A DNA stretch of 64,000 bases from an uncultured Clostridia bacterium. Its GTDB lineage: Bacteria; Bacillota; Clostridia; UBA1212. Position numbers and translations under genes: made by a program. Below are positions 12,739-53,775 of the stretch, one piece after another (position 1 is the stretch's first letter; each line of letters opens with the position of its first letter). The stretch is taken from the NCBI GenBank assembly GCA_947304585.1, contig CAMZBI010000001.1, positions 25,501 to 89,500 on the forward strand, in the 5' to 3' direction. The notes under the pieces were generated by a model that ran no database searches, was not told the DNA's origin, and worked only from the letters and a program-made list of their open reading frames with translations.

Positions 12739-13488
12739 ATGAAAGAATTTTTTGATAAACTGTCGAATTTTATGGATTTTCAAACGCAGATCTACATCAT
12801 CATGGGAGTCTTTTTTCTCCTGCTTCTGCTTTGCTTCATCCTGCTGGTAGTTGTCGGCGTAAAGAACAAAAAGCTTGCCGAAGAGGTCAAAGGGATGAGA
12901 AAGGCATTGGCAAAGGTCAAAAAAACCGCCAATGCAGTTCAGGAGGCCGCCGGTGAACAGCCGGTTGCCGGTGAGATCTCTGTTGACGCGGAACAAGAGG
13001 CGCCTGAGGAGAAGGTGATTCCGGAAAAAATTGAGGAAGACGAGACCGAAGATTTGCCGGAAGCAGGACAATCACCGGAGAAAGAGGCAGACGACCGGCC
13101 GGCAGAAGATGCCCCGGAGAAGAATGCAGATAAAAACGAGGCCGCAACTGAAGCAACGGCGACGGTCCTTCCCGAGGAACAGCAGGCGTTTAATGAGGCT
13201 GTTGAGGCTGAAATCGACGCCCTTAAGGAAAAAACAGACCTCATCGCCAAAAATCAGCGAAAGAGCTTTGACAAAATTAAAGTTGTGCGGTATAGTTCAA
13301 CTCTGCCTGACGGAACGGAGACCGTTTCATACTCTATCGGTATTACCAATCAGGACAGAGACGGTATCGTGCTGACAGGCACCGAAACTGCGGACGGAGC
13401 CACGTCTCTCGTGGTGAAATCCGTCAAGGGAGGATTAAGCAAAACTCCTTTGACCGCAGCAGAGGACTGCGCCATCAAACGCGGCTGA
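12739..13488 (+). CDS. DUF4446-like membrane-anchored protein with acidic low-complexity linker
   Basis: N-terminal TM helix, E/A/P-rich acidic segment, conserved C-terminal domain; typical position downstream of parB. Confidence 0.55.
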   Translation: MKEFFDKLSNFMDFQTQIYIIMGVFFLLLLLCFILLVVVGVKNKKLAEEVKGMRKALAKVKKTANAVQEAAGEQPVAGEISVDAEQEAPEEKVIPEKIEEDETEDLPEAGQSPEKEADDRPAEDAPEKNADKNEAATEATATVLPEEQQAFNEAVEAEIDALKEKTDLIAKNQRKSFDKIKVVRYSSTLPDGTETVSYSIGITNQDRDGIVLTGTETADGATSLVVKSVKGGLSKTPLTAAEDCAIKRG

Positions 13489-13598
13489 AGGCCGTTCTGA
13501 AAAAGCCGACGGACTGCGGATCATTGGCGTCCGGACTTTCATACAAACAACAGACCCGCAGTTTTGCGGGAAAAACAGATTTCGGGGAGTTGATTTAA

Positions 13599-14900
13599 TT
13601 GTTAGATATAAAACTTATCAGACAGAATCCTGATCTCGTAAGAGAAGCACTGAAAAAGAGAAATTCGTCGCTTACCCTCGACGAAGTCATTGCCGCGGAC
13701 GAACGTCGCCGGGAGATACTGGTGACTGTGGAGCAGCTGAAGAAAAGGCAGAACGACGCCTCAAAACTCATCCCTGCATACAAAAAAGAGGGAAAAGACG
13801 TGGCGCCTCTCATGGACGAGATGAAGGAGATCTCCGCCAAGGTCAAAGATCTCGACGCAGAGCTCAAGGTAGTTGAAGCCAAGATTAGAACTCTGATGCT
13901 TAATTTCCCCAATATTCCCAACGAGAAAGTGCCCTACGGCGTTGACGACAGGGACAATTTCGAGATGAGGAAGTTCGGCGAGCCCACAAAATTTGACTTC
14001 CAGCCCAAGGCTCACTGGGACATCGGAACCGATTTGAATATTCTTGACGCGGAAAGAGCCGCCAAGATCACCGGAGCCAGATTCACGGTCTACCGCGGTG
14101 CAGGGGCCAGACTTGAGCGCGCCATCTACAATTTCATGCTTGACCTCCACGTGGAAAAGCACGGCTACACCGAGATATTCCCGCCCTACATGGTCAACCG
14201 GGCCAGCATGACAGGCACCGGCCAGCTTCCGAAGTTCGAAAACGGCGCATTCAAGATCAAGAACATGGACAGCGAAGCCGCAGAGGACGAAAAAGACTTC
14301 TTCCTCATCCCCACGGCGGAAGTTCCGGTAACGAACCTCCACAGGGACGAGATCCTTGACGGAAGCAAGCTCCCCATCAAATACTGCGCATACTCGGCCT
14401 GCTTCAGGTCCGAAGCCGGTTCCGCCGGCCGCGACACCAGAGGCCTCATCAGACAGCACCAGTTCAACAAGGTGGAACTGGTAAAGTTCACAACGCCGGA
14501 AACCTCTTACGCAGAGCTGGAGACCCTCACCAATGACGCAGAGGACGTCCTCAAGATCCTGGGCCTGCCCTACCGCGTTGTCCGCCTCTGCAGCGGCGAC
14601 CTTGGCTTCTCCTCGGCAATGACCTACGACATCGAAGTCTGGATGCCCAGCTACGGCCGCTACGTCGAGATCTCCTCCTGCAGCGACTTTGAAGACTTCC
14701 AGGCAAGACGTGCCAATATCAAATACCGCGACGCCGACGGAAAACCGAAGCTTGTCCACACTCTCAACGGGTCGGGCCTTGCAGTCGGAAGAACAACCGC
14801 TGCGATCCTGGAGAACTACCAGCAGGCAGACGGCAGCGTAATAATCCCCGAAGCCCTTAGAAAGTACATGGGCGGCATGGAAAAGATTGAAAAGGCCTGA
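13599..14900 (+). CDS. serS: serine--tRNA ligase
   Basis: Class II aaRS motifs; TTG start with GGGGAG RBS. Confidence 0.95.
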
Positions 14901-25039: not shown

Positions 25040-25378
25040 CATGCACTTTGCATCGCTGCGCTTTTTTGTTTTTGATGATTTCATAAACCCGCACTTAGCT
25101 GCGGGGCGGTAATCTTTGAAATCGCTTTTGCCCAAAAGGCAGGAGCGGCAAACCAAATATTTTGCCAATATATTTCCGGGGAAACGCAGCCGGATTTCGG
25201 ACAGCTGCGACCGGCCCGGATAGTTTCTACCATGACGCCGAATGTCACGACTATTGGGAAACCCCGTTTCAAGCGATCGAATTGCCGGAGCGGGACGTGT
25301 TGGCAAAAACAGACCCCTTAAAAGGTCTGCTTTTTGTTTGCAGTATACACACGTTATATTCAATATTTGGAGGAAATT

Positions 25379-31983: not shown

Positions 31984-32056
31984 GGGCCTATAGCTCAGTT
32001 GGGAGAGCGCTGCGTTCGCAACGCAGAGGTCATGGGTTCGAATCCCACTAGGTCCA
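31984..32056 (+). tRNA. tRNA-Ala (anticodon CGC)
   Basis: Manual cloverleaf: acceptor GGGCCTA/TAGGTCC with the G3:U70 Ala identity pair, D-arm GCTC-AGTTGGGA-GAGC, anticodon loop TTCGCAA, T-loop TTCGAAT; no encoded CCA. Confidence 0.85.
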
Positions 32057-32415
32057 CAAGACAGAATCAGGGGGGGTAGCCGTCGAGGTTACCCCCCTGA
32101 TTCTGTCTTGAAACAATAGCGTTGGATTCGAACCCGAGGCCCCCGCAAAATCGTCAGATATATTAAATATGGGGTCCCCGTAAAATCGTTAGATTTTGCG
32201 GGGAAGAGGAGCCACAGCGACGCAAACGGAGACTTTCAAGAGAGAAAGAGAGGAAGTTTCTTGAAAGTCGGAGTCCACGTTGCTTGTGGCGACGTGGAGC
32301 CGCAGCGGAGCGATTGAAGTCTTCCAACAAAGGAGAAAAAAAGAAAACCGTATTAAAACAAGAAATAACGGTTTGTTGCCGACTGAATGATGAAACTTCT
32401 GCCGGCTTTTTTATG
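32057..32415 (+). repeat. structured modular repeat, copy A (abuts tRNA-Ala; ends in terminator)
   Basis: 17-bp hairpin immediately after the tRNA; GGGATTCGAACCC; helix CCCCGCAAAATC…GATTTTGCGGGG; GAGGAGCC; GACTTTCAAGA…TCTTGAAAGTC hairpin; terminator TGCCGACTGA…TCAGCCGGCTTTTTT. Confidence 0.7.
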
Positions 32416-32516
32416 CAAAAGCAAACTTTTTGTGGCAAGACAAGACGAAATGAGTTTGGTACAATTTGCAATGTAAAAAATAGCCGGCATTTTTAAGACG
32501 GGAGGTGATTCCGCAA

Positions 32517-33005
32517 ATGAACACAGCTGAAAAAATCATAGCGCTCAGAGCTGAGAGAGGCATTTCGCAGCAGGAACTTGCTGACGCAGTTTTTGTTTCA
32601 CGATCTCTCGTGTCAATGTGGGAGGCGGGAACACGCATTCCGGACAGTTTGAGCGTTGAGAAAATGGCTGCGTTGTTCAATGTAAGTGAGGAGGAGATTT
32701 TGAGCGATAGGAAATACGCTTTTGCGTCGTCGCTTGAGAGGAAACTCATTGGCGATGAGATTGCGGAGTTTACCGATGTTGACAGTTCACCGGGTGACAA
32801 GGAACAGGTAAAAAAGATAATGAACGGGTTCCTTCAAAGCATTGGTGGCGTTGACCGCGAGTTGTTTATGAGTCGATACTTCGAAATGAAAACATGCAAA
32901 GCTATCTCAGAGGAAACGCATATGAACGTTTCTACAGTCAGGTGGAGATTGTCCAAACTGAGAAAGAAGCTTGTGCTTTACGCGAAAAAAGGAGGTAAAA
33001 AATGA
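32517..33005 (+). CDS. XRE-HTH + sigma-70 region 4 fusion regulator (ECF-like)
   Basis: N-terminal Cro/C1 HTH (…RGISQQELADAVFVSRSLVSMWEAG…); C-terminal sigma region 4.2-like (…RELFMSRYFEMKTCKAISEETHMNVSTVRWRLSKLRKKL). GGAGGTG RBS. Confidence 0.65.
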   Translation: MNTAEKIIALRAERGISQQELADAVFVSRSLVSMWEAGTRIPDSLSVEKMAALFNVSEEEILSDRKYAFASSLERKLIGDEIAEFTDVDSSPGDKEQVKKIMNGFLQSIGGVDRELFMSRYFEMKTCKAISEETHMNVSTVRWRLSKLRKKLVLYAKKGGKK

Positions 33006-35233
33006 ACGAAAAAGACTTTAGGGAGGCTTTGTCTGAGATTGGAAATGACGTCGATGCGCCAATTTCGGGCGACGCAGTGATAAAAAATAAAAGTAAATTC
33101 AGAAACATTGTGATCATATCTGCCGCGGCGGCAATCGTGCTGACTTTTGCGGTCATTGCCGCTGTTATTATCGGTACGATCGGATCGAATAATCAAAACA
33201 TAAGCGGGGGAGGGCCTTCTGACAAGGTCCTTTTGGTGAATACTCCTTCGCCTGGAGGTATTGACAAGACCGAAGAACCCGGCAATAAAGCAAACCACGG
33301 GGCAACGTCCTCGCCGACCGCAGACCCGACTTCAGCTCCCACAAATCCGCCAATTTCTCAGCCCACTGAGACTCCTGATGGACCTCAAGGGACTCGGGAG
33401 CCTTATTACGTTGAGCCTTTCTGGCTTAAGGGGGAGTATTTGACGGTCAAAAAGCTTGGCTACGGCGGCTCCTCAAACATCGTTTCCTTTGGCGAGGGGA
33501 GTGTCAGCGCAAAGATTATCCCCACAACGGTATTCGGCGAGCATGAGAACTGCGGGAAGGTCTACTATAACACGGAGACCAATGAGATATATTGCGTTTA
33601 CCACGAGTTTCTGGAGGCCTCGGGCGTGACCGTGCCGGAGGGTTATTACATCTATTATGAGCAGGACACGGTGCGGGACGATCTGATGTGCATAAAGATT
33701 GTTGATCCGGGTGACCTTGGCACCACGGACCTGTGGCTTTTTGACATGGACGACCGCCTGGCAAAGAGAGTGGGGCTTCCGGAGGGATGCGGCAGCTACG
33801 AGGATATAAAGATCTATACGCCGGGCCTCTGCAACGGGAAGCTTGCCCTTTGCGTCAGCGATGACATTGGCGATTGCTACATAAGTATTTTTAACAGCGG
33901 AACAGGTGAATATCAGGACTTCGGCAAGGACGCAGGCCTTAAGTCTCTGACCTGCACCTTCCTGACGGAGACTGTGCTTGAGGTGTCGACTCCCGACGGG
34001 TATTACGCCTGGAACACCGCCAATTCTAGAATGTTCAAGCTTATCGGTGAGCACAATATCGTGTTTGACGGGCTCCTTTATTCCGTGAAGAACTGGTGGG
34101 GAGGCTACCATAAGGACGTGGAAGTGGCGGTATATAACGTCGAGACCGGGCTCCTGAGGAAGGGAAGCGGCGGCGTGTTGGCATTGGCGGTGATGGACGA
34201 CGGATCCTACGGCGTGCTTTCTATTGACGACGAGACCGGAAATGAGACGGTCATCATGGATCATTATACGGAGGGCGCTACTGCCTGGAGCAAAGATCAT
34301 GCCTACTTTTACGCATATTCCGCCAAGGACAACAGAGTCCTCTGCTATTCGGTCTCCGCTTGCCAATGGACTTTTGCAGACGTTGCTCCGATAACAAAAG
34401 ATCCGGTACTCGTCGAAGGGACTCTTTATGCGGTGTTCAACAGCTGCAGGCTTGCCGTCGACGACAACTGCAGGGAGGTTACGCTTTACCACACAAGAAA
34501 ACTGGAAGAAATACCTGACCTTCCGGATTTTGAGGAGCAGAGGGTTGACTCCCCTTACTGGGACGACTATCGCGACATTGCCGCAAATAACCGTTTCTCG
34601 GAAACTGACCGCTGGTATGTCACCTACAAAGAGGACAGGGTCAGCACGGGATGGATCGGACATGACGTCGCCAACATGGATGCCCTGCGGGATATCATAC
34701 TGCTTTGCCTGGAGACCCGGGGCGAAAGACTAAAATACGATTTGACTGAAAGCGATTACGACTTCTTTAAAATGAGTTTCAGCTACAGTACATTCAGCAT
34801 GGAGTTTTTTGAAAAAGACGGCAGATACTACTTGAATCTCAATGCCAACAGACAGCCTCCAATGGGTTTCGTGAGTGAATTCAGCGAGATACCGGAAGAG
34901 ACTTTCCTAAGGGTCATGGATATGCACAGCCCTTACGTTCAGTTCACATGGATATCGGTATCAGCCCGAATCGACGATGTTTCAGATCCAAATTGCAAGG
35001 TGGTACTTGATGAGAGCGAGAAGAGTTATTTGAAGGAGTTAATATCTTCCGGCAATTGGAGGCAAAACGATTTTCAGGGCGTTACGTATTTCAGGTACGC
35101 ATGCTTTTTCATTGACGGTGATGTGTGGTTCTGTTATGAGCCCAACATGAAAATCTTGCAGGATATCATGCACTCAACACATATAGAGCTAACAGACGAG
35201 GAGTGCGCCGCCATCGACATAATGCTGAATTGA
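33002..35233 (+). CDS. single-pass membrane anti-sigma-like protein with large extracytoplasmic domain
   Basis: 4-nt overlap with the regulator gene; short cytoplasmic N-terminus, one TM helix (IVIISAAAAIVLTFAVIAAVIIG), about 680-aa exterior domain. Confidence 0.5.
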   Translation: MNEKDFREALSEIGNDVDAPISGDAVIKNKSKFRNIVIISAAAAIVLTFAVIAAVIIGTIGSNNQNISGGGPSDKVLLVNTPSPGGIDKTEEPGNKANHGATSSPTADPTSAPTNPPISQPTETPDGPQGTREPYYVEPFWLKGEYLTVKKLGYGGSSNIVSFGEGSVSAKIIPTTVFGEHENCGKVYYNTETNEIYCVYHEFLEASGVTVPEGYYIYYEQDTVRDDLMCIKIVDPGDLGTTDLWLFDMDDRLAKRVGLPEGCGSYEDIKIYTPGLCNGKLALCVSDDIGDCYISIFNSGTGEYQDFGKDAGLKSLTCTFLTETVLEVSTPDGYYAWNTANSRMFKLIGEHNIVFDGLLYSVKNWWGGYHKDVEVAVYNVETGLLRKGSGGVLALAVMDDGSYGVLSIDDETGNETVIMDHYTEGATAWSKDHAYFYAYSAKDNRVLCYSVSACQWTFADVAPITKDPVLVEGTLYAVFNSCRLAVDDNCREVTLYHTRKLEEIPDLPDFEEQRVDSPYWDDYRDIAANNRFSETDRWYVTYKEDRVSTGWIGHDVANMDALRDIILLCLETRGERLKYDLTESDYDFFKMSFSYSTFSMEFFEKDGRYYLNLNANRQPPMGFVSEFSEIPEETFLRVMDMHSPYVQFTWISVSARIDDVSDPNCKVVLDESEKSYLKELISSGNWRQNDFQGVTYFRYACFFIDGDVWFCYEPNMKILQDIMHSTHIELTDEECAAIDIMLN

Positions 35234-35282
35234 CGTGCAGGGTTCAAAAGGACAGGTCGGCGGATGTGACGGATTGAACAGC

Positions 35283-35752
35283 GCATCTATTAAGGATGCA
35301 CTGTAGGGTAAAAACGGCCCACTGCATCTAAACCGACCACACACCACACAGACGCAGGGAGTAGCCTCCACGGCTACTCCCTGTGTCTGTAATAGAAACT
35401 ACCTGGTGGGATTCGAACCGGGGCCCCCGCAAAGATTTGGCGAAAAGGCTTTAATAACGCCAATTCTTTGTGGGGAAAAGGAGGCGCAGAGATGCAAACA
35501 AAGTGATTCAAGCGAATTTGTTCTTAAAATGCTTAGATCACGCAGTCGGCGTCTCTTGCGGCGACGCATTCGTACGCTATTGAGGCTTTTCAAACACGGG
35601 TTTCAAAACTGAAAAACAGTCTTTTTTACAGGTTTTTCTAAAGATTTTTTTGCCGAAATCAATGACCGGTTTCCGGGAAATCCGAGAACAGGATCAAGAA
35701 TAACAACGATATGTTCCCGACTGATTGATGAATATTCAGCCGGCTTTTTTTT
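35283..35752 (+). repeat. structured modular repeat, copy B
   Basis: TGCACTGTAGGG…CTGCATCTAAACCGACCACACACCACA; hairpin CAGACGCAGGGAGTAGCC/GGCTACTCCCTGTGTCTG; 18-bp helix CCCCGCAAAGATTTGGCG…CGCCAATTCTTTGTGGGG; AAAGGAGGCGCAGAGATGCAAAC; micro-ORF; terminator. Confidence 0.75.
35529..35612 (+). other. Arg-rich micro-ORF inside repeat copy B (MLRSRSRRLLRRRIRTLLRLFKHGFQN)
   Basis: ATG conserved in copies B, C and D2; coding status uncertain. Confidence 0.25.
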
Positions 35753-35821
35753 ATGCAAAAAAATGAATTGAAGGATTTCACATCGAAGGAACAATTGAAA
35801 ACAATTTCACACTTTGTACAT

Positions 35822-38230
35822 TCACTCAACCGCTTTCTGTTTACCGAAAAGGATAGAGCCAAGAGAAATATAGTCTCCGCGCACATGATCGATCCTGAAC
35901 CTCGCCGAGCGGTCATACTCATATACCATGTATGCGCCGCCGCAATAATCCTTTAAAATTTTCACAGGAGCAATCAGGTTTAAGCTTTTTGCGTCAAACA
36001 TCTCTACCGCGAGGCAGCAGTCCGGAGCATTGGCAGTAAAACGGAGAGCCACAGTATATTTCTGCTTCCGTTTCATCTTAATATCGGCGGTGAAAGACTG
36101 GGCGCAAACGTTATCATAATTTGTGCCGTAGGTTTCAGAGCCGCCGTTTTTGATGTAAATCCCGCGTGACAGGACGATATCTTCAACATATTCCGGAAGC
36201 TTTGATTTAACCATGGAAGAGCAGTCAAAGAAGCCGTCACTGCCGTATTTCTCATTGGCGTCGCGGTCGATGCCTTTGAAGGACGCAGGGTAGCAAAACA
36301 TAGGTGCTCTGTACGTTTTAACCCTTCCGGTATAAGCGGCGCTGAAAGTGTATTCCCCGGCGGAAATGTTTTCATAATAACAAAAATCATCGTCTTCCTT
36401 GTCAAAGGTTGCAGGGGAACCATTCAATTCTATATTTGAAATACGCATTCCTGCCTTGGGGATGGCGACGAGAGCTTCCGTACCTTCGGGTACCGAAACA
36501 TGATGAATTCCTTTTTTTATGTCAAACGAGGCTCTTATTGTGCCGTGAGGCGTAGGCATATCGCCAATGACATTTTTTAACTGAGTGCCCAAATGGGGGA
36601 TAACCGAAAACTTCTCGAAACCCGGTTTGACAGGTTTTATACCCAGTACTTCTGTGCTTAGAAAAGCAAGGACGCCTGCGCTCCAGGGATGAGCAAGACT
36701 TGTATATCCCGCCTGACTGTTCGGCAAGGGACCGTTCTTGTCGATTTCGTCTTTCCAGCCCGGACGAAAAACTTCAAAGAAGCAGGTCCCGCCGTATTCT
36801 ATCTGAGACCCCCAAAGATCAAGGATCGATGATAAAGCATCATCGTATTTACCTGTTTTGGCGAGAGCCTTAAGGATAAAGAACTCGTTGAAGGGAGAAT
36901 AGGATATGCGGTTGGTGCGGTCGTTAAAAAACTTTTTGAACAATTCTTCTCGGACCTTTCCGTCTGCGACACCGGCATTCACCGAGTCCGCAAAAGCATG
37001 GATGCCGCAGGACTTGTGCCATAAAGGATCGCTGCTTAAAAGAATACCCTTTTCCTCAGCATATCTCGTGCAACGCCGGGCGTAGTCCTGCCGCCCGAGC
37101 AAATTGAATATATCGGCATATTTTTTGAAACATTCAATGGAAAGAAACTTATATGAAAGACGGTTCTCGGGTATGTCCGGGTTTTCAAAACCCGCGCCAA
37201 GGCGTTCATCCCAGCCGAAAAATGAGAGCGGATAGTTTTTGTCAAAGATTTCATTGGCGTGTTCCAGTCTTTTAACAGCCTCGTCGATCAAACTCAATAC
37301 GCCTACATTATCTCCGGAAAAATCATAGTAGTCGGCAAGTGAAAGAAGCCAGTACAGTTCAAAGCTTTCTATACCGTTCGGGTGTGCGGAAGTATGTTTC
37401 AGGTTTTCAAGCACAAAGTCATAGTTGGCAAATGCTGCAAGAGAAGCTGCCTGAGCGGTGTAAGCGTCTCCTGTCCACGAATGGCGATCACCGCGGTCAA
37501 TAAGTATTGCCGACATGTAGTCTTTTTTCAAATTGACTCTAACGTCATAGGCAGCCGTGTACCAGATCCGGTTCAGCATCCGATTGTCGCACTCAAATGA
37601 GCCGTAATAGTTGACCGGTTTTACCTGGCAGACAAGTCTTACGCCGGTGATATGAAATTCCTTTTTAAGTCCTTGTATATGAATGAAACCGAAGCGCACG
37701 CCCTCATAAAGTTCCGGGTTAAGAACAAGCCTGTAAACGGTATCTGACACTTTTACGGGGTGCCTTGTCTTTTTTGATGACTGAACTCCCCGGTTAACGA
37801 TCTCGGGACTTGTGTACTCACTGACGCTTAACACAATGTTTTCCGGATCGCCAAGGTCAGGACTCATTATCTCAAGCCACGCCGCAAATTCCGAACCGAA
37901 GTCGATCATTACGGTACCATCGCCTTTTACGGTTAAATCTGTATCACCGGAAAGCAACGATTCAAGGTTCAGGAAACTGTTATTGTCCTCCGTTTCATAC
38001 TTTACCGGATAGGCGAAGAAAACCCGCAGCTCGTTTCCTGCGCTCACGTCGTCAAAGCGATAAGACAGAAGAGGATCAGGGGAAAAAGCAGCACCGGCGT
38101 TTTTTACCAATGTCCCGCCCGATATGTGTTTATAAGGTTCTTCGATATCAATATTGGCGATATTGATTCTGAATCTGTCGGAATGATCGTTGCACATGAA
38201 ACTCTGATTATCAATTTCCCGCAAAAGCAT
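35822..38230 (-). CDS. six-hairpin glycoside hydrolase, alpha-L-rhamnosidase-like (GH78-like)
   Basis: 802-aa ORF; central (alpha/alpha)6-type segment (…RHSWTGDAYTAQAASLAAFANYDF…). Exact start uncertain; family assignment by resemblance only. Confidence 0.5.
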   Translation of the reverse strand: MLLREIDNQSFMCNDHSDRFRINIANIDIEEPYKHISGGTLVKNAGAAFSPDPLLSYRFDDVSAGNELRVFFAYPVKYETEDNNSFLNLESLLSGDTDLTVKGDGTVMIDFGSEFAAWLEIMSPDLGDPENIVLSVSEYTSPEIVNRGVQSSKKTRHPVKVSDTVYRLVLNPELYEGVRFGFIHIQGLKKEFHITGVRLVCQVKPVNYYGSFECDNRMLNRIWYTAAYDVRVNLKKDYMSAILIDRGDRHSWTGDAYTAQAASLAAFANYDFVLENLKHTSAHPNGIESFELYWLLSLADYYDFSGDNVGVLSLIDEAVKRLEHANEIFDKNYPLSFFGWDERLGAGFENPDIPENRLSYKFLSIECFKKYADIFNLLGRQDYARRCTRYAEEKGILLSSDPLWHKSCGIHAFADSVNAGVADGKVREELFKKFFNDRTNRISYSPFNEFFILKALAKTGKYDDALSSILDLWGSQIEYGGTCFFEVFRPGWKDEIDKNGPLPNSQAGYTSLAHPWSAGVLAFLSTEVLGIKPVKPGFEKFSVIPHLGTQLKNVIGDMPTPHGTIRASFDIKKGIHHVSVPEGTEALVAIPKAGMRISNIELNGSPATFDKEDDDFCYYENISAGEYTFSAAYTGRVKTYRAPMFCYPASFKGIDRDANEKYGSDGFFDCSSMVKSKLPEYVEDIVLSRGIYIKNGGSETYGTNYDNVCAQSFTADIKMKRKQKYTVALRFTANAPDCCLAVEMFDAKSLNLIAPVKILKDYCGGAYMVYEYDRSARFRIDHVRGDYISLGSILFGKQKAVE

Positions 38231-38233
38231 TTC

Positions 38234-39307
38234 TCATCGGTCTATAACAGCTTTAATAACTCCGCCGCCGATAACCAAACCTCTTTCATCATAAAAAACG
38301 GCGGACTGCCCCTGTGCGGCAGCCCTCACGGGCTCGTCAAATTCAACTCTTACAGTGTCGTTTCTCGCTTTTTCGATAAATGCGGGCTGACCTTTGTGCC
38401 CGTATCTGATCTTGACAATGCATCTTACTTTTTTACTGTCCTCAAGGCTCTCAATACTCATAAAGTTCAGATTATTGCAAAGTATTTCCCGATTGTAGAG
38501 AGAGTCACTCTTTCCGATAACGACTTCGTTTTTTTCCGGGAGTATTTCCTTCACATAGCCCGGATATCCCAGGGAAATACCGAGCCCTTTTCTTTGGCCC
38601 ACAGTGTAATATATGATTCCCTTATGCCTTCCCAGCACATTTCCGTCAGGATCGACAAAATTGCCTTCTTTTGCACAGCCTGTTTTGGCTGCAATAAAGT
38701 CCCCGTAGCTCCCGCCGGTCACAAAGCAAATCTCCTGAGAATCCGGCTTTGAAGCAACGGCAATTTCCGCCTCCTTTGCGATACTTCTGACTTCGTCTTT
38801 ACTTAAACCGCCAAGAGGCATCAGCGTCGCTGCAAGCTGTTCCTGGGTCAGCCTGTAAAGCATGTAAGTCTGGTCCTTTTCGGTATGGCAGGCTGTCTTC
38901 ACCGTATACCTTCCGTTCTCAAGCTTTTCAACAGAAGCGTAGTGCCCGGTGGCAATATGATCTGCCCCGAAAACCTTGGCGTAAAACAGAAGCTTCTCCC
39001 ATTTAACATACCTATTGCAAAAAACACAGGGGTTGGGTGTACGGCCGGAAAGGTATTCGCCGACAAAAGGCTCTACTATATGTCTCCTAAAATCCGACGT
39101 ACAGTTTATGGGATAATAAGGTATGCCGATGCTTCTTGCGGCGTCTCTTGCATCGTCGATGTCGCAACAACGTCCTTCGTCACCGTCTTCAGTCTGCCAG
39201 ACCCTCAGGGTCACGCCAATGACATCATATCCCTCTTTTTTTAGGAGATATGCCGCTACGGCGCTGTCGACTCCTCCCGACATTCCCACAACAACCTTAT
39301 TACCCAT
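38234..39307 (-). CDS. mnmA: tRNA 2-thiouridine(34) synthase
   Basis: PP-loop VVVGMSGGVDSAVAA and conserved cysteines. Confidence 0.9.
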   Translation of the reverse strand: MGNKVVVGMSGGVDSAVAAYLLKKEGYDVIGVTLRVWQTEDGDEGRCCDIDDARDAARSIGIPYYPINCTSDFRRHIVEPFVGEYLSGRTPNPCVFCNRYVKWEKLLFYAKVFGADHIATGHYASVEKLENGRYTVKTACHTEKDQTYMLYRLTQEQLAATLMPLGGLSKDEVRSIAKEAEIAVASKPDSQEICFVTGGSYGDFIAAKTGCAKEGNFVDPDGNVLGRHKGIIYYTVGQRKGLGISLGYPGYVKEILPEKNEVVIGKSDSLYNREILCNNLNFMSIESLEDSKKVRCIVKIRYGHKGQPAFIEKARNDTVRVEFDEPVRAAAQGQSAVFYDERGLVIGGGVIKAVIDR

Positions 39308-39572
39308 AATAATTTACTGCCCGGAACACATTGCTATAAAAGAAATGCGATCATTCAACTTTTTTGAGTGGTTTAAAGTTTTTGTCACCATCCCTGAAAA
39401 AAGATTACGGTAGATTATAAACCTTTCTGCCTACTATGTCAATGGGTATATTCTGCTGTGCCGGGATCAATGTATCAACACGGATTGGTATGGAAAAGCA
39501 TTGGCGGCTTTGATATCTTCCTGTGACGCATATTTCACCAAGGTAACGCTGCAGTTAGGTCCGTAGGAGAGC

Positions 39573-40266
39573 GACTCTATTTAGTTTTCAAGTCATGTTA
39601 TCTTGTACACTGTATCTATTTAGTCTGTACAGTGCATCTTTTAGGGATGTACAGTAGGCCAAAAACGGCCCTCTGCATCTAAATCGACCACACACCACAA
39701 GGTGAACCCGGGTCCCCGAAAGTGCTCGCGCTTTTGGGGAGAGGAGCCGGGGCGGCGGGAATGGAGTCTTTCAAGTGAGGATCTATAAACTTCTTGAAAG
39801 ACGGAATCGTCGGCGTTCGCGGCGACGAAAATAGATGCACACGCAAAAATCGGCTATTTTTAGCCGATTGGAGCGGCTCGAAAGGCCAAAAATTTTAGTG
39901 CGAAATAAAAAGATGCAAAAGCCTATTCCCGAGGGGAATCCATAGGGGCCCCCGAAACTCGCTTTCACACATTGGCCCGTCACTAGTCCGCTTTCGCGGA
40001 AATCGTTCCGGCTCCAATGTGTGGCGCGAGATGGGCCTATTTATGCGCTTTTGGGGAGAAGGAGCCGCAGAGACGCAAACGAAGTGGTCCAAGCGAATAC
40101 AATCTTATAATGCTTGAAACACGCAGTCGGCGTCTCTTGCGGCGACGCATTCGTACGCTATTAAAGCCTTACAACAAGAGTCTTTAAGGGAAAAAGAGAG
40201 CTATATTAAAACAAGAAATAACGGTTTGTTGACGACTGAGTGATGAAACTTCAGCCGGCTTTTTAG
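39573..40266 (+). repeat. structured modular repeat, copy D (composite, two tandem module sets)
   Basis: ACTGTATCTATTTAG and TGTACAGT(×2) block; CCCCGAAAGTGC…GCGCTTTTGGGG; GTCTTTCAAG…CTTGAAAGAC; AATCGGCTA-TTTTT-TAGCCGATT; second helix CCCCCGAAA…CTTTTGGGG enclosing CACACATTGG…CCAATGTGTG; micro-ORF; terminator. Confidence 0.75.
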
Positions 40267-42755: not shown

Positions 42756-43254
42756 CATATGCATCTATTTGGTCTGAACACTGTATCTATTTAGGATGTA
42801 CAGTAGGGTAAAAACGGGCCTCTGCATCTAAATCGACCACACACCACACACAGAATCAAGGGGTAGCCTTCGCGGTTACCCCTTGATTCTGTGTTGAAAC
42901 AATAGCGTGGGATTCGAACCCGGGGCCCCCGAAAGATTTGGCGAAAAGGCTTTAATAACGCCAATTCTTTGTGGGGATAAGGAGCCGCAGAGACGCAAAC
43001 GAAGTGATTCAAGCGAATTTATTCATAAAATGCTTGGATCACGAAGTCGGCGGCTCTTGCGGCGACGCATTCGTACGCTATTGAGGCTTTTCAAACACGG
43101 GTTTTAAGACTGAAAAACAGTCTTTTTTACAGGTTTTTCAAAAGATTTTTTACCGAAATCAACGACCGGTTTCCGGGAAATCCGAGACCGGGATCAAGAC
43201 AAATAACAACGATCTGTTGCCGACTGAGTGATGAAAATTCAGCCGGCTTTTTGG
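42756..43254 (+). repeat. structured modular repeat, copy C
   Basis: Near-identical architecture to copy B, but the 5' hairpin is ACAGAATCAAGGGGTAGCC-TTCGC-GGTTACCCCTTGATTCTGT. Confidence 0.75.
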
Positions 43255-49629: not shown

Positions 49630-49740
49630 GCACCTGTTTGGTCTGCATACAGTATCTTTTTATATGCACACGCAGAAATCGGCTATTTTTAGCCGATTGG
49701 AGCGGCTTGGAAAGCGATTTTTTGAGCAATGAAATAAAAA
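49630..49740 (+). repeat. partial copy (E) of the structured repeat
   Basis: TTTGGTCTGCATACAGTATC…GCACACGCAGAAATCGGCTATTTTTAGCCGATTGGAGCGGCTTGGAAAG matches the internal segment of copy D. Confidence 0.55.
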
Positions 49741-49819: not shown

Positions 49820-51238
49820 TCACCTTTTTCCCGCATCCTTGCCGATCCTGAAGATAAGATTGCCGTTTTCGTCATAGCCGGAATAAACGGTCTCCACGTT
49901 GAGTCCGATCGAATTAACAAGCGGGCCCTTATCATATACACTTTTCACGTATTCCGAAACTATGAGACAGTACTCACCGTAATCAATAACTGCAGTCGGC
50001 GTTCCTGCGTCAAAGTCCTGAAAACGACTGTCATTTGAGAAAATGAATGAACCGTTTATAATTCCCACTAACGATTCGTTGCGAAACATATTATCTGACA
50101 CTGTCGATCCGAGAACGTTAAGGTCGTAATCGATCTCCACGTTCATGTCGACAGCGAGAACGGTTTTACCGGAATCAACAAAATCACCGTCGGTCGACTG
50201 CGTTCTGACGAAAAGCATAAACCCGCCCTCAGAGGGTTTTGCATAGTTTAAATGATCAAAATCACTGCCTTTGAGGAAACCTCTTTTGATCTCTTGTCCG
50301 TCATCGGCGAGAATGATCATTATAACGTCGGTCTCTCCGTAGTCACGCCACTTCTGCTGATCACGATGCGTTCCGAAAAAGAAATATCTGCCTTCCCTTT
50401 CGATGCAGTTGTAAAACGAACTGCCCTCAAGGCCGTCAAATGCTTTATCAAACTGGAGATTTCCGAATCTGTCGCATTTTATGACTCTCGAGGCGTAACC
50501 TTCATCGCTCGCCCGTTTTTGATCCAAATAGTCATAAGTATAATCTTGAAAGCCGAGGACGAAAAGAAAGCCTCCGTCGGAAGTTGCGGTCAGTGTCGTG
50601 ACGATGTATGCGTCATCGCATTTCACGGTATACTCGGCAAGAACGTCGCCAAAGATATCGAGCATCGTTACCTTTTGAACGACCGTTCTCGTTTCCGGAT
50701 CTTTTTCAACGGTCTCACTTTTCAGCAGTCTGTCGGAAAAAGCTTTGGCGTCTTTAAAGGCGTTCTCATCGATGAGGCTCGTAAGCTCCGGCGGTATCGC
50801 GCCGCTGTCTGTCTCTCGAGGCGGGAAAACGTACCTGTTCCAGATTTCCTCAAGCATCTCGGGTGTCATTTCGGCGTTCCCGATCTCCTCGCAGGGAACA
50901 CTGTTTTTGATTACTTCCGCTGTTTTCTCATCCGTGAACCTTTTTTCTATGATATCGAAGAATACGTTTTTCATTTCTGTACGGCTGAGACCTTCCGAAT
51001 TCAGTCCGTTGTTTTCAAAGAAGGCTGAAGCAGCGTCAAAGGCCTTGGCTTCCGAATAGGCAAATACGCCTGCCACGGCAGCAAGTGCCGCGATTAGAAG
51101 AACGCATACGGACACGGGTATCCATCGTAAATGGTTCCGGCTGTTTTTTTTACTCGATCCTGAGTACGATCTCAAAGCACGGTCAGCCATTTCTTCGTCT
51201 ATACCGGCGAACGCGTCGAAAAGCTGGTTATCTTTCAT
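49820..51238 (-). CDS. single-pass membrane anti-sigma-like protein (paralog of 33002..35233)
   Basis: N-terminus MKDNQLFDAFAGIDEEM resembles MNEKDFREALSEIGNDV of the first partner; one TM helix; 4-nt overlap with the upstream regulator gene. Confidence 0.5.
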   Translation of the reverse strand: MKDNQLFDAFAGIDEEMADRALRSYSGSSKKNSRNHLRWIPVSVCVLLIAALAAVAGVFAYSEAKAFDAASAFFENNGLNSEGLSRTEMKNVFFDIIEKRFTDEKTAEVIKNSVPCEEIGNAEMTPEMLEEIWNRYVFPPRETDSGAIPPELTSLIDENAFKDAKAFSDRLLKSETVEKDPETRTVVQKVTMLDIFGDVLAEYTVKCDDAYIVTTLTATSDGGFLFVLGFQDYTYDYLDQKRASDEGYASRVIKCDRFGNLQFDKAFDGLEGSSFYNCIEREGRYFFFGTHRDQQKWRDYGETDVIMIILADDGQEIKRGFLKGSDFDHLNYAKPSEGGFMLFVRTQSTDGDFVDSGKTVLAVDMNVEIDYDLNVLGSTVSDNMFRNESLVGIINGSFIFSNDSRFQDFDAGTPTAVIDYGEYCLIVSEYVKSVYDKGPLVNSIGLNVETVYSGYDENGNLIFRIGKDAGKR

Positions 51239-51717
51239 TTTTTTGACTCCTTTATGTACCTTGCAAGTTTGGCTCTTGTCTTTGAGAGAATGCTCCTGAC
51301 GTGATTCTCGCGAATGCCGTACGCTTCAGCGATCTCGGCAGTGTTCTTCAGGTGATAGTAACGATTAATAAAAATATCAGCGTCCTTTTCCGGGATGCTC
51401 CTTAGAAAACGGTCCAAAACAACTGCCAGATCTGCGTCGCTGATTTCGATTCCGGCAAGGTTGCCGTCAAAGAGTTCTTTGAAAACAAGGTCGGTTGTAT
51501 CAACTATTTCGTCAACTTTGGCGTTAAATACTTCTGCTATTTTTTCGATCATACGATAATTCGGACGCCTCGTTCCGTTTTCCCATTTTGAGACCAGATC
51601 TCTTGAGACAAACAAACTGTCGGCAAGCACCTGCTGAGACATACCGTTTTTATTGCGCAATTCACTTATTTTTTTGCCGATATTCAGCGAAAACACCTCC
51701 TTTGACCATGATCGCAT
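51235..51717 (-). CDS. XRE-HTH + sigma-70 region 4 fusion regulator (paralog of 32517..33005)
   Basis: Same two-domain architecture (…GMSQQVLADSLFVSRDLVSKWENG… and …DIFINRYYHLKNTAEIAEAYGIRENHVRSILSKTRAKL). Confidence 0.65.
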   Translation of the reverse strand: MRSWSKEVFSLNIGKKISELRNKNGMSQQVLADSLFVSRDLVSKWENGTRRPNYRMIEKIAEVFNAKVDEIVDTTDLVFKELFDGNLAGIEISDADLAVVLDRFLRSIPEKDADIFINRYYHLKNTAEIAEAYGIRENHVRSILSKTRAKLARYIKESKK

Positions 51718-51900: not shown

Positions 51901-52085
51901 GAGTTATGTACAGTACCCGCGAAAACCCTTAAAAACCCGGGAAAATACCGCCAAGAAATCTAAAACGACCACACCCCCCAAGGATAAAGACTCCTTCGCG
52001 GGGGCTTTTTCGTGGCGTTGTACAAGCGCTAAGAGGCCCCCGAAAGCGCTTGCACTTTTGGGAGGAGAAAAGCCGCAACGACGTT
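51901..52085 (+). repeat. partial copy (F) of the structured repeat, upstream of the AAA ATPase gene
   Basis: ATGTACAGTA…TCTAAAACGACCACAC; GACTCC-TTCGC-GGGGGTC hairpin; GAGGCCCCCGAAAGCGCTTGCACTTTTGGGAGGAG. Confidence 0.65.
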
Positions 52086-52201
52086 TTTGGATATGAATCA
52101 AATTCACTTGACAAATTGCGATTATGTATATATAATGCCAAAAACAAATTGCGATTACGTCGTGATTTGACCCAAAAGAAATTGCGACAGGAGATTACGC
52201 C

Positions 52202-53530: not shown

Positions 53531-53775
53531 GATTATTGCCAAGAAAACTAAAACGTCTACACACTCCACGAAAAAAGACTCCTTCGCGGGGTCTTTTTTC
53601 GTGGTGGAGCAAGTAAAGAAAGAGGCCCCCGAAAGTGCTTGCACTTTTGGGAGGAGGAGCCAAAACGGCGGAAATGGGGAGTCCTTCAAGGAAACGAAAA
53701 AACGAGAGTGGAATAATGACAAATAATAACGGTTTGTTGCCGACTGAGTGGTGAAGCTTCAGCAGGCATTTTTTA
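53531..53775 (+). repeat. copy G of the structured repeat, immediately downstream of the AAA ATPase gene
   Basis: CTAAAACGTCTACACAC; perfect 14-bp stem CCACGAAAAAAGAC/GTCTTTTTTCGTGG around the TTCGC loop; GAGGCCCCCGAAAGTGCTTGCACTTTTGGGAGGAGGAGCC; terminator. Confidence 0.7.

Follow-up and report, generated by a model that had tools for sequence, protein, structure and literature searches.

The stretch of DNA considered here, which we call the window, comprises 64,000 nucleotides (nt) of an uncultured Clostridia bacterium (GTDB lineage Bacteria; Bacillota; Clostridia; UBA1212; NCBI GenBank assembly GCA_947304585.1, contig CAMZBI010000001.1, positions 25,501 to 89,500 of the forward strand). 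Within it, successive cassettes of cargo genes are piled behind a tRNA-Ala(CGC) gene, and at the joints between these cassettes sit copies of a folded module of ~120 nt that we have named S. The module contains a hairpin, CCCCG…UGGGG (P1), which a first-pass annotation of the same DNA had described as a nested long-range helix followed by a ribosome-binding-site-like AGGAGCC. S is strand-specific, covarying, conserved and tied to the 3' flanks of tRNA genes, and in the window it marks the cassette joints behind tRNA-Ala.

The tRNA-Ala(CGC) gene that anchors the array lies at 31984..32057 on the + strand; it was located by ARAGORN and scores 66 bits with the Rfam tRNA model. Its end in the window (32050-32060) reads …GGTCCACAAG and CCA is not encoded; all the relatives encode …GGTCCACCA. 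Directly 3' of the gene is a terminator-like hairpin (32059..32108, + strand), evident in the sequence and in a terminator-like scan (32070-32098), and equivalents of it precede copies B, C, G and F of S.

Copies of S in the window

There are seven copies of S in the window, five of them complete, and all are on the + strand. In every one of the seven the CCCCG…UGGGG helix is followed by the (A)GGAGCC motif, in variant form in B and G, as the first-pass annotation had maintained; the range that it assigned to this pattern (32118-40075) takes in copies A, B, D1 and D2, but C, G and F fall outside. Copy A (32137-32295; 93 bits with the covariance model described below) has the perfect 12-base-pair (bp) stem previously attributed to it, CCCCGCAAAATC (32141-32152) paired with GATTTTGCGGGG (32192-32203), and this stem does enclose a palindrome, GGGGTCCCC (32171-32179). 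The motif AGGAGCC follows at 32207-32213, succeeded by two further helices (P2 and P3) and by GGCGACG at 32288-32294.

Copies B (35420-35567; P1 at 35425-35442 with 35458-35475; 104 bits; fold z-score -7.4) and C (42922-43068; P1 at 42927-42943 with 42959-42976; 110 bits; fold z-score -8.9) both have the long stem that had been credited with 18 bp and one mismatch, but neither is quite so regular. In B the 18 positions are made up of 16 Watson-Crick pairs, one G.U and one U.U; in C the sequence is CCCCGAAAG and not CCCCGCAAAG as had been read, which introduces one extra bulge. The helix of copy D1 (39710-39828; 110 bits; fold z-score -4.1) is also present, as a P1 of 11 bp with a 4-nt loop (39714-39739), but the string originally given for it counted one G twice. 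Copy D2 (39946-40148; 104 bits) combines a P1 base formed by CCCCGAAA and UUUUGGGG (39951-39958 with 40049-40056) with the expected insert of ~90 nt (39959-40048), in which the 10-bp inverted repeat CACACATTGG/CCAATGTGTG (39967-39976 and 40015-40024) is indeed perfect; the insert makes a long hairpin of its own, CTCGC…GCGAG around CACACATTGG…CCAATGTGTG.

The helices of the two remaining copies could likewise be recovered. Copy G (52030-52096; 23 bits) is truncated, consisting of P1 (52038-52063) and a degenerate GGAGAAAAGCC, with a hairpin upstream at ~51990-52015; copy F (53619-53746; 27.5 bits) is short and diverged, having kept P1 (53627-53652) and GGAGCC while P2 and P3 have decayed, and it too has an upstream hairpin (~53569-53608). 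P1 is preceded by GGGG or GAGG-N before the CCCC, and its 3' flank is a run of A-rich purines leading in most copies to (A)GGAGCC. This downstream motif, which had been taken to be constant, deviates in B (AGGAGGC) and G (GGAGAAAAGCC). The string CCCCGMAAR occurs 14 times where 3.2 occurrences are expected.

Fold, covariation and strand of S

The structural analysis was based on an alignment of 16 copies of S from ~8 genomes; the window supplied 5 of them and related contigs, referred to below by their labels (L001 and so on), the other 11. When 15 copies were folded one by one with RNAfold, an identical architecture was obtained each time: P1 leads through a purine linker of 3-4 nt into a hairpin of ~90 nt, and this hairpin opens with a G-C pair and tandem G.A/A.G, continues into the 13 bp of P2, from which one U bulges, passes through a conserved internal loop that contains a mini-helix of 2 bp, and finishes in the 11 bp of P3. 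The base of the hairpin is made by GGAGCC in its 5' half and by the invariant GGCGAC(G) that ends the module in its 3' half. In P1 the CCCCG/UGGGG base is conserved; the distal part is free to vary (AAAGUGC/GCACUUU, AAAAUGC/GCAUUUU, GAAGCGC/GCGCUUUU, CAAAGUC/GACUUUG and AAAGAUUUGGCG/CGCCAAUUCUUUG) and tolerates inserts of 4-90 nt. For six copies compared with dinucleotide shuffles, the minimum-free-energy z-scores ranged from -4.1 to -8.9.

A covariance model constructed from five copies matches all 16 with 47-133 bits, and F and G with 23-27 bits. Standard pairs occupy 92.9% of the cells of the 16-copy alignment, against 39-48% when the partners are slid by 1-3 columns. Both-sided (compensatory) changes are found at 19 of the 38 pairs (6/11 in P1, 8/16 in P2 and 5/11 in P3), a degree of covariation that was reached in 0 of 500 shuffles; since the alignment was itself fitted to the model and all 16 copies are relatives of one another, such shuffle counts are not probabilities and the covariation numbers are to be read as supportive. 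They agree with the independent folds of single sequences. Across three tRNA contexts S is strongly conserved in sequence and structure, with invariant unpaired bases and a tandem G.A motif. We have little doubt that the helices are genuine. The first-pass annotation had envisaged a conserved closing helix with a variable insert inside a structured, RNA-like domain, and this description is sustained by the covariation, the strand bias of the G.U pairs and the conserved unpaired bases. The closing helix is also conserved beyond the window, P1 covarying over the 16 copies.

The folds of S contain 46 G.U pairs, the fold of the + strand is stabler than that of the - strand in 14 of the 15 copies, and a T-tract terminator follows S on the + strand. 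The G.U pairs and the greater stability indicate that the + strand is the one that folds, as RNA or, less likely, as single-stranded DNA. On these strand preferences it seems reasonably probable that the structure works as + strand RNA and not as DNA.

No catalogued RNA family corresponds to S. Among Rfam 15 models applied to the window at the gathering score, only tRNA and a distant purine riboswitch pass, and none passes for S, the ROOL/GOLLD, HEARO, YrlA and T-box families included; permissive searches returned nothing relevant at E<=5 over 31.9-43.4 kilobases (kb), nor at E<=1 in L009, L010 and L012, and no known ribozyme family in Rfam matches the module. The purine riboswitch aptamer match (25146-25273, + strand; 39.3 bits against a gathering score of 37) is unrelated to S. 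Several resemblances were considered by eye and dropped: group II intron domain V, a hammerhead core in T3 (the terminator module that follows S), a K-turn and T-box Stem I, for which the bulges or cores required are absent and there is no Rfam match, as well as a minus-strand tRNA or transfer-messenger RNA, whose features do not fit and for which neither Rfam nor ARAGORN gave a match.

tRNA-matched arms and the cassette array

In relatives the full unit runs from a terminator hairpin through an antisense T-arm copy to S itself, and then to a sense copy of the last 17-22 nt of the tRNA. These arms are exact copies (17-22 nt for the sense and 13-16 nt for the antisense arm), and both of them switch with the identity of the local tRNA. 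Behind the tRNA-Lys gene of L010, where five full units stand in tandem, the arms are GGGACTCGAACC(C) and (CG)AGTCCCTGAAGGTGCACCAA; in L004, L006 and L013 they are GTGGGATTCGAACCC and (CG)AATCCCACTAGGTCCACCA, and in L009 CGGGATTCGAACCC and AATCCCGTATGCTCCACCAC. The tRNA 3' end is accordingly present as direct repeats of 19 nt in L004, 20 nt in L009 and 16 nt in L006, and six times, at 17-22 nt, in L010. In four copies, from L004, L009 and L010, S leads straight into 17-22 nt that repeat the local tRNA 3' end; what follows S in the window, L001, L012 and L013 is other sequence. The junction between GGCGACG(C) and the tRNA sequence from T-loop to CCA is constant in seven copies, including a remnant at the distal end of the L012 array in which the 3'-terminal 12 nt of S run directly into a decayed tRNA end. 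When full units are folded as RNA the two arms are predicted to pair with each other, closing S into a three-way junction. In the window the antisense arm alone survives, in copies A (GGATTCGAACCC, the exact reverse complement of the tRNA-Ala T-arm, 32124..32135), B (GTGGGATTCGAACC, 35406..35419) and C (GTGGGATTCGAACCC, 42907..42921), all on the + strand. Because its flanks copy the neighbouring tRNA in the relatives, S probably belongs to a mobile element that targets tRNA genes, and is probably no gene switch.

The same arms also enclose a second, unrelated scaffold (type 2) in L005, L006, L010 and L013, whose closing helix shows a U-A to C-G switch between the Ala and the Lys contexts. It is ~110-130 nt long (GAGGGTCGAGGCGTAAAACAAATCATCCGGTGGATGATTTGTAGCCGAGATCGCGAAGAGCTATGCTCGAGCAG…) and lies on the - strand at L006:9545-9695, L013:9568-9710, L010:14120-14281 and 13460-13620, and L005:3300-3436; the window lacks it, and Rfam offers no match to it. 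Two displaced or replacement copies of the tRNA-Ala 3' end depart from the reference at adenines only. The one in L012 (1611-1642, - strand) has gone from AATCCCACCAGGTCCACCA to AAATCCCGCCGGGTCCGCCG by four A-to-G changes only, and at L013:9735-9775 (- strand) there are only A-to-C changes, three relative to the displaced copy or two relative to the L006 equivalent. Such adenine-only changes are reminiscent of adenine-specific mutagenesis, and the numbers are too small to call.

The relatives were reached by several routes. An exact-pattern scan with T3, the terminator that comes after full copies, gave two true matches in 185,579 species genomes, L001, a metagenome-assembled genome (MAG) of a rumen Ruminococcus sp., and L002, a Clostridia MAG from goat reticulum; a pattern fitting all the canonical S copies identified four metagenome contigs, L009-L012; and homologues (~60% identity) of a neighbouring nucleotidyltransferase gene led to L004-L008 and L013-L016, syntenic loci of which the majority carry the S family. 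There was no match in phage and plasmid collections by BLAST with the full unit, nor in IMG/VR scanned with four patterns, and exact-protein look-ups to extend past the window's right end returned no record. S lies beside tRNA-Ala(CGC) in the window, L001, L004-L006, L012, L013 and L015, beside tRNA-Ala(GGC) in L009 and beside tRNA-Lys(CTT) in L010; the searches revealed no copy away from a tRNA 3' flank.

The genes between the copies of S in the window are unrelated to one another: a helix-turn-helix (HTH)-sigma-like gene with a membrane-protein gene, a glycosidase gene and mnmA on the opposite strand, and genes for ORF6N, GNAT, AAA_14/DUF4143 and tubulin-like proteins. The right end of each gene block carries two to four iterons of 22 nt (…GTGCATCTATTTAGTCTGTACA…) and a terminal GCATCTAAATCGACCACACACCACA. 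Such right ends lie on the + strand at 35275..35348 (iterons of ~22 nt and a terminal GCATCTAAACCGACCACACACCACA), at 39604..39699 (three iterons, TGTACAC…, TGTACAGTGCATCT…, and the terminal GCATCTAAATCGACCACACACCACA) and at 42775..42848 (iterons and terminal site). Complete left ends, present in L012, L004 and L010, start 3-4 bp past the copy of the tRNA end and are composed of an inverse iteron TGTGCAGACTAAATAGATGCAC, a terminator hairpin and a second iteron. The window has a truncated homologue of them at 39829..39934 (+ strand; inverted iteron AAAATAGATGCACACGC, terminator hairpin AAAAATCGGCTATTTTTAGCCGATT, second iteron), and also a cassette joint that lacks S (49640..49720, + strand), at which a right-end iteron fragment abuts a left-end module (truncated left end, 49661-49720).

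The cassette termini are TGT…ACA, with ~3 contiguous iterons at one end and, in inverted orientation, 2 spaced ~75 bp apart at the other, a layout that would suit Tn7/Mu-type ends and lambda-type integrase arm sites equally well. Ends of the Tn7/Tn402/Mu type (or the lambda-type arm sites) share with the cassettes the TGT…/…ACA ends, the 22-nt repeats and a site- and orientation-specific insertion a few bp past the 3' end of a conserved gene; they differ in that no tnsA/B/C/D or tniQ was seen here and in that S is not part of known Tn7 ends. No 5-bp target-site duplication of the iteron-ended cassettes could be established unambiguously from the junctions. As no transposition genes were found, the iteron-bounded cassettes look non-autonomous or decayed.

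In the canonical long copies (B, C, D2, L001 and L012) S is succeeded by a decayed second unit, in which ATTCGTACGCTATTGAGGC… resembles ATTCGAACCC-GAGGCCCCCG, and then by T3. The first T3 of the window (…GTTGCCGACTGAATGATGAAACTTCTGCCGGCTTTTTT; 32376..32413, + strand) lies before a cargo promoter, and its homologues are at ~35714-35752, ~40228-40265, ~43216-43253 and ~53736-53775; the cargo promoter-like sites are located after T3. The module (AACGGTTTGTTGCCGACTGAGTGATGAAACTTCAGCCGGCTTTTT) closes each long copy ahead of the next cargo promoter, and its loop is conserved beyond what a terminator needs. In L001 the order is simply tRNA, hairpin, one S and an ORF6N gene, and the window has ~8 kb of extra cassettes in between; the comparison shows that the window gained cassettes between the tRNA and D2.

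Among the cargo, a full-length mnmA (tRNA 2-thiouridylase; 38234-39307, - strand) and a rhamnosidase-like gene lie within the array on the opposite strand. A gene for a small HTH_3 plus sigma-70 region 4 protein is repeatedly paired with one for a large membrane protein, at 32505-35233 and 49820-51717 (- strand) in the window and in L006, L010, L013 and L015. These pairs were considered as mobility genes and rejected, a close homologue being present at a core, tRNA-free locus (L020:8001-10705) that has neither S nor iterons.

Possible roles of S

Arrays of islands linked to tRNA genes are well known, and mobile elements with structured RNAs at their ends have been described as well. In the reading that we prefer, S would be the structured RNA core of an integrative module that homes to tRNA 3' ends. 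We put this forward tentatively, as a package with slightly less than even odds, and its parts are not equally secure, those that concern structure and context being much the firmer. That S belongs to a tRNA-end-homing mobile unit is likely; that it plays a part in targeting or recombination is rather doubtful. The unit would integrate at the T-loop or 3' end of a tRNA gene, the incoming DNA would supply a replacement tRNA end and a terminator, and S would be left abutting the displaced tRNA end. Transcribed from the + strand and closed as a three-way junction by the tRNA-matched arms, S may then, as an RNA, confer specificity on a recombinase whose gene lies elsewhere, or assist in its assembly. 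In the window, most of the tRNA-derived flanks would have been lost through deletion between repeats.

A number of observations weigh against this proposal. The S-bearing arrays, about a dozen distinct loci and the window, yielded no gene for an integrase, a transposase, a reverse transcriptase, Cas, TnpB or an IS110-type enzyme, and the recombinase is consequently hypothetical. The Pfam and NCBIfam scans, which covered ~40 open reading frames (ORFs) of the window and the loci and were complemented by the precomputed annotations of the S-bearing loci, returned only proteins of cargo type: HTH-sigma-like, AAA_14/DUF4143, ORF6N, GNAT, CotH, AbiEi, FtsH-like, tubulin-like and surface proteins. 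OrfB_Zn_ribbon, RuvC-type and HNH domains had no match in the ORFs of window positions 30-63 kb or of the related loci; tnsB, tnsC, tniQ and cas had none in Pfam or NCBIfam; and no CRISPR repeat-spacer array was found. Neither a DEDD-type recombinase nor an RVT domain was present in the scanned ORFs. Upstream of the window's S copies there is no consensus promoter, and a TGnTATAAA/C element between hairpin and S occurs in some relatives only. The window contains no sense repeat of the tRNA end, and S lacks both arms in D1, D2, the second copy of L004, L012 and L013, which means that the arms are not obligatory for S. Finally, the searches made found the family in only ~8 genomes, within a small group of uncultured rumen-type Clostridia, and the relatedness of the copies qualifies the covariation as stated above.

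The one recombinase that was seen, a large serine recombinase in L017, belongs to a different element, devoid of S, that recombines in the tRNA D-loop. In this relative the same tRNA-Ala locus (L017:2690-3260, - strand, and L017:969-2609, + strand) holds at least five tandem copies of a promoter with a 5' tRNA fragment that breaks off at GTTGGGAG, then one intact tRNA and the convergent recombinase gene.

A bolder form of the same idea would make S and its two arms the programmable RNA of an undescribed RNA-directed DNA insertion system homing to the tRNA T-loop or 3' end. Within a single stretch of the tRNA gene, the top strand would be complementary to one arm and the bottom strand to the other, and the RNA might act in the manner of a bridge RNA, or as primer and template with a reverse transcriptase, its protein partner being encoded elsewhere in the genome. 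It was the same kind of target covariation that exposed the bridge RNAs and the omega RNAs. Like the guide RNAs known from element ends (the omega RNAs of TnpB and IscB, the bridge RNAs of IS110, the seekRNAs of IS1111 and the homing CRISPR RNAs of CRISPR-associated Tn7-like elements), S is a structured non-coding scaffold at a boundary; where it has arms, sequence that equals or complements the target comes directly after it, in its case before it too, and covaries with that target. Unlike them, S has no TnpB, IscB, DEDD recombinase, Cas or Tns effector beside it and shows no sequence or Rfam similarity to them; its target matches are terminal arms of 13-22 nt that pair together and not internal loops or a single 3' guide, whereas in the IS110/IS1111 RNAs target and donor are set by two internal loops; and many copies of S are without arms. 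The literature yielded no description of a conserved scaffold between antisense and sense copies of a tRNA target in units as small as ~220 bp with no resident enzyme. The programmable form is improbable.

Of the competing explanations, two are equally placed, each being unlikely. The first supposes that S is a site for recombination in folded DNA, comparable to integron attC or to the attP of CTX phage. The antisense and sense pieces of the tRNA would pair on one DNA strand, rebuilding the duplex of the tRNA-gene 3' end; S would be a mere variable terminal structure, and a host or trans-encoded tyrosine recombinase would join the site to the tRNA gene and so generate cassette arrays of uniform orientation. 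The S arrays do resemble those systems in their uniform orientation, in the imperfect palindromes between units, in the lack of any integrase inside the units or nearby, and in a palindrome stem that reproduces the recombination target and closes an inner structure. The conserved purine mismatches inside the closing helix, the enclosure of two unrelated scaffolds within one and the same closing helix, and the want of a convincing promoter would all be understandable on this hypothesis, and DNA hairpins tolerate G.T pairs too. Nonetheless, the conservation of the sequence and structure of S over three tRNA contexts exceeds the needs of a variable terminal structure, S persists without its closing arms (D1, D2 and L012), and the inner structure, which covaries, has G.U pairs and a tandem G.A motif that suggest RNA. 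The target is moreover a tRNA gene, there is no match to an integron integrase, and attC boxes (R'', RYYYAAC; R', GTTRRRY) are absent from every module.

The second holds that S is an ordinary small RNA gene, or an RNA from the tRNA 3' trailer, with a function for the host or in maintenance of the element, and that it was duplicated passively as islands carried copies of their flanks; its tRNA-derived arms would have arisen incidentally, through integration and through extension of the palindrome at the terminator. Consistent with such a gene, a single S directly 3' of tRNA-Ala is the common state among relatives (L001, L015 and L013), and terminators bracket each S. Islands that target tRNA genes are known, furthermore, to leave partial tRNA repeats and tandem arrays, as do the tycheposons of Prochlorococcus (bioRxiv 10.1101/2020.12.28.424599). 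With tycheposons and integrase-driven islands the S arrays have in common a hotspot directly behind the tRNA at which newer insertions push older ones outward, the partial repeats of the tRNA 3' end between units (in the S relatives), and a cargo of accessory or defence-like genes. They differ in having no integrase in or adjoining the array, in units that can be as small as ~220-250 bp, and in carrying a conserved scaffold and an antisense T-arm copy, which classical islands do not. An ordinary gene also fits poorly with the occurrence of S at the loci of three different tRNAs, where arms of both orientations match the local tRNA, with its position just inside cassette left ends (D2, the second copy of L004 and L012), and with its very narrow distribution (the two true matches to the T3 pattern among 185,579 species genomes and the four metagenome contigs for the S pattern). 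The multi-copy state and rapid decay (F and G) would suit a selfish element better than a host gene. We accordingly hold the small-RNA explanation, like that of folded DNA, to be a minority possibility.

Much less probable is that S is a retro-mobile RNA, copied by a reverse transcriptase encoded elsewhere and primed on a nick in the tRNA T-loop, with the 3' arm as primer-binding site in the fashion of a short interspersed element or a prime-editing guide RNA. The constancy of the junction between the S 3' end and the tRNA end in seven copies, the junction duplications GGCGACG-N-GGCGACGC, which resemble template switching, and the restriction to adenines, at two loci, of the differences in displaced tRNA ends could be so explained. 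Yet no locus encodes a reverse transcriptase, no poly-A or other hallmark of a retroelement was seen, and the adenine-only changes number just 4 and 3 positions. Copies of S truncated at the 3' end exist (L006 copy a, F and G), for which reason a simple rule of 5' truncation, as in retroelements, was also rejected. Retron msr-msd RNA is similar to S in its closing arms and differs in that the arms of S are tRNA-derived and no RVT match was found.

There remains the proposal of the first-pass annotation, that S is a riboswitch-like or ribozyme leader in which the closing helix controls access to AGGAGCC as the Shine-Dalgarno sequence of a downstream ORF; an AGGAG-like motif is indeed conserved in a structured domain with a variable insert, but AGGAGCC pairs with the invariant 3' GGCGACG in every predicted fold, 15 of 17 copies, those of related genomes included, have no ATG, GTG or TTG 3-14 nt after GGAG (the two exceptions open ORFs of 4 and 32 codons), and no consistent class of same-strand gene lies downstream, the genes there being heterogeneous, in some cases on the opposite strand, and separated from S by a terminator and their own promoter-like sites, with no Rfam aptamer or ribozyme match. 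We therefore reject AGGAGCC as a ribosome-binding site, and a leader function for S is scarcely credible.

For the annotation of such genomes it follows that this "ribosome-binding site" is unsuitable for gene calling; the copies of S are themselves useful landmarks of cassette boundaries in an accessory region, more than 20 kb long, of this uncultured rumen bacterium. Should S be an RNA, as our preferred reading of it as the core of a tRNA-homing module supposes, it would represent a new and well-supported structured motif tied to mobile DNA, one without counterpart in the databases and built on three covarying helices and a tandem G.A base. That both arms change with the neighbouring tRNA around a constant scaffold could reflect integration at tRNA genes specified by RNA or by folded DNA, or a new way of building tRNA-linked cassette arrays with no resident integrase.

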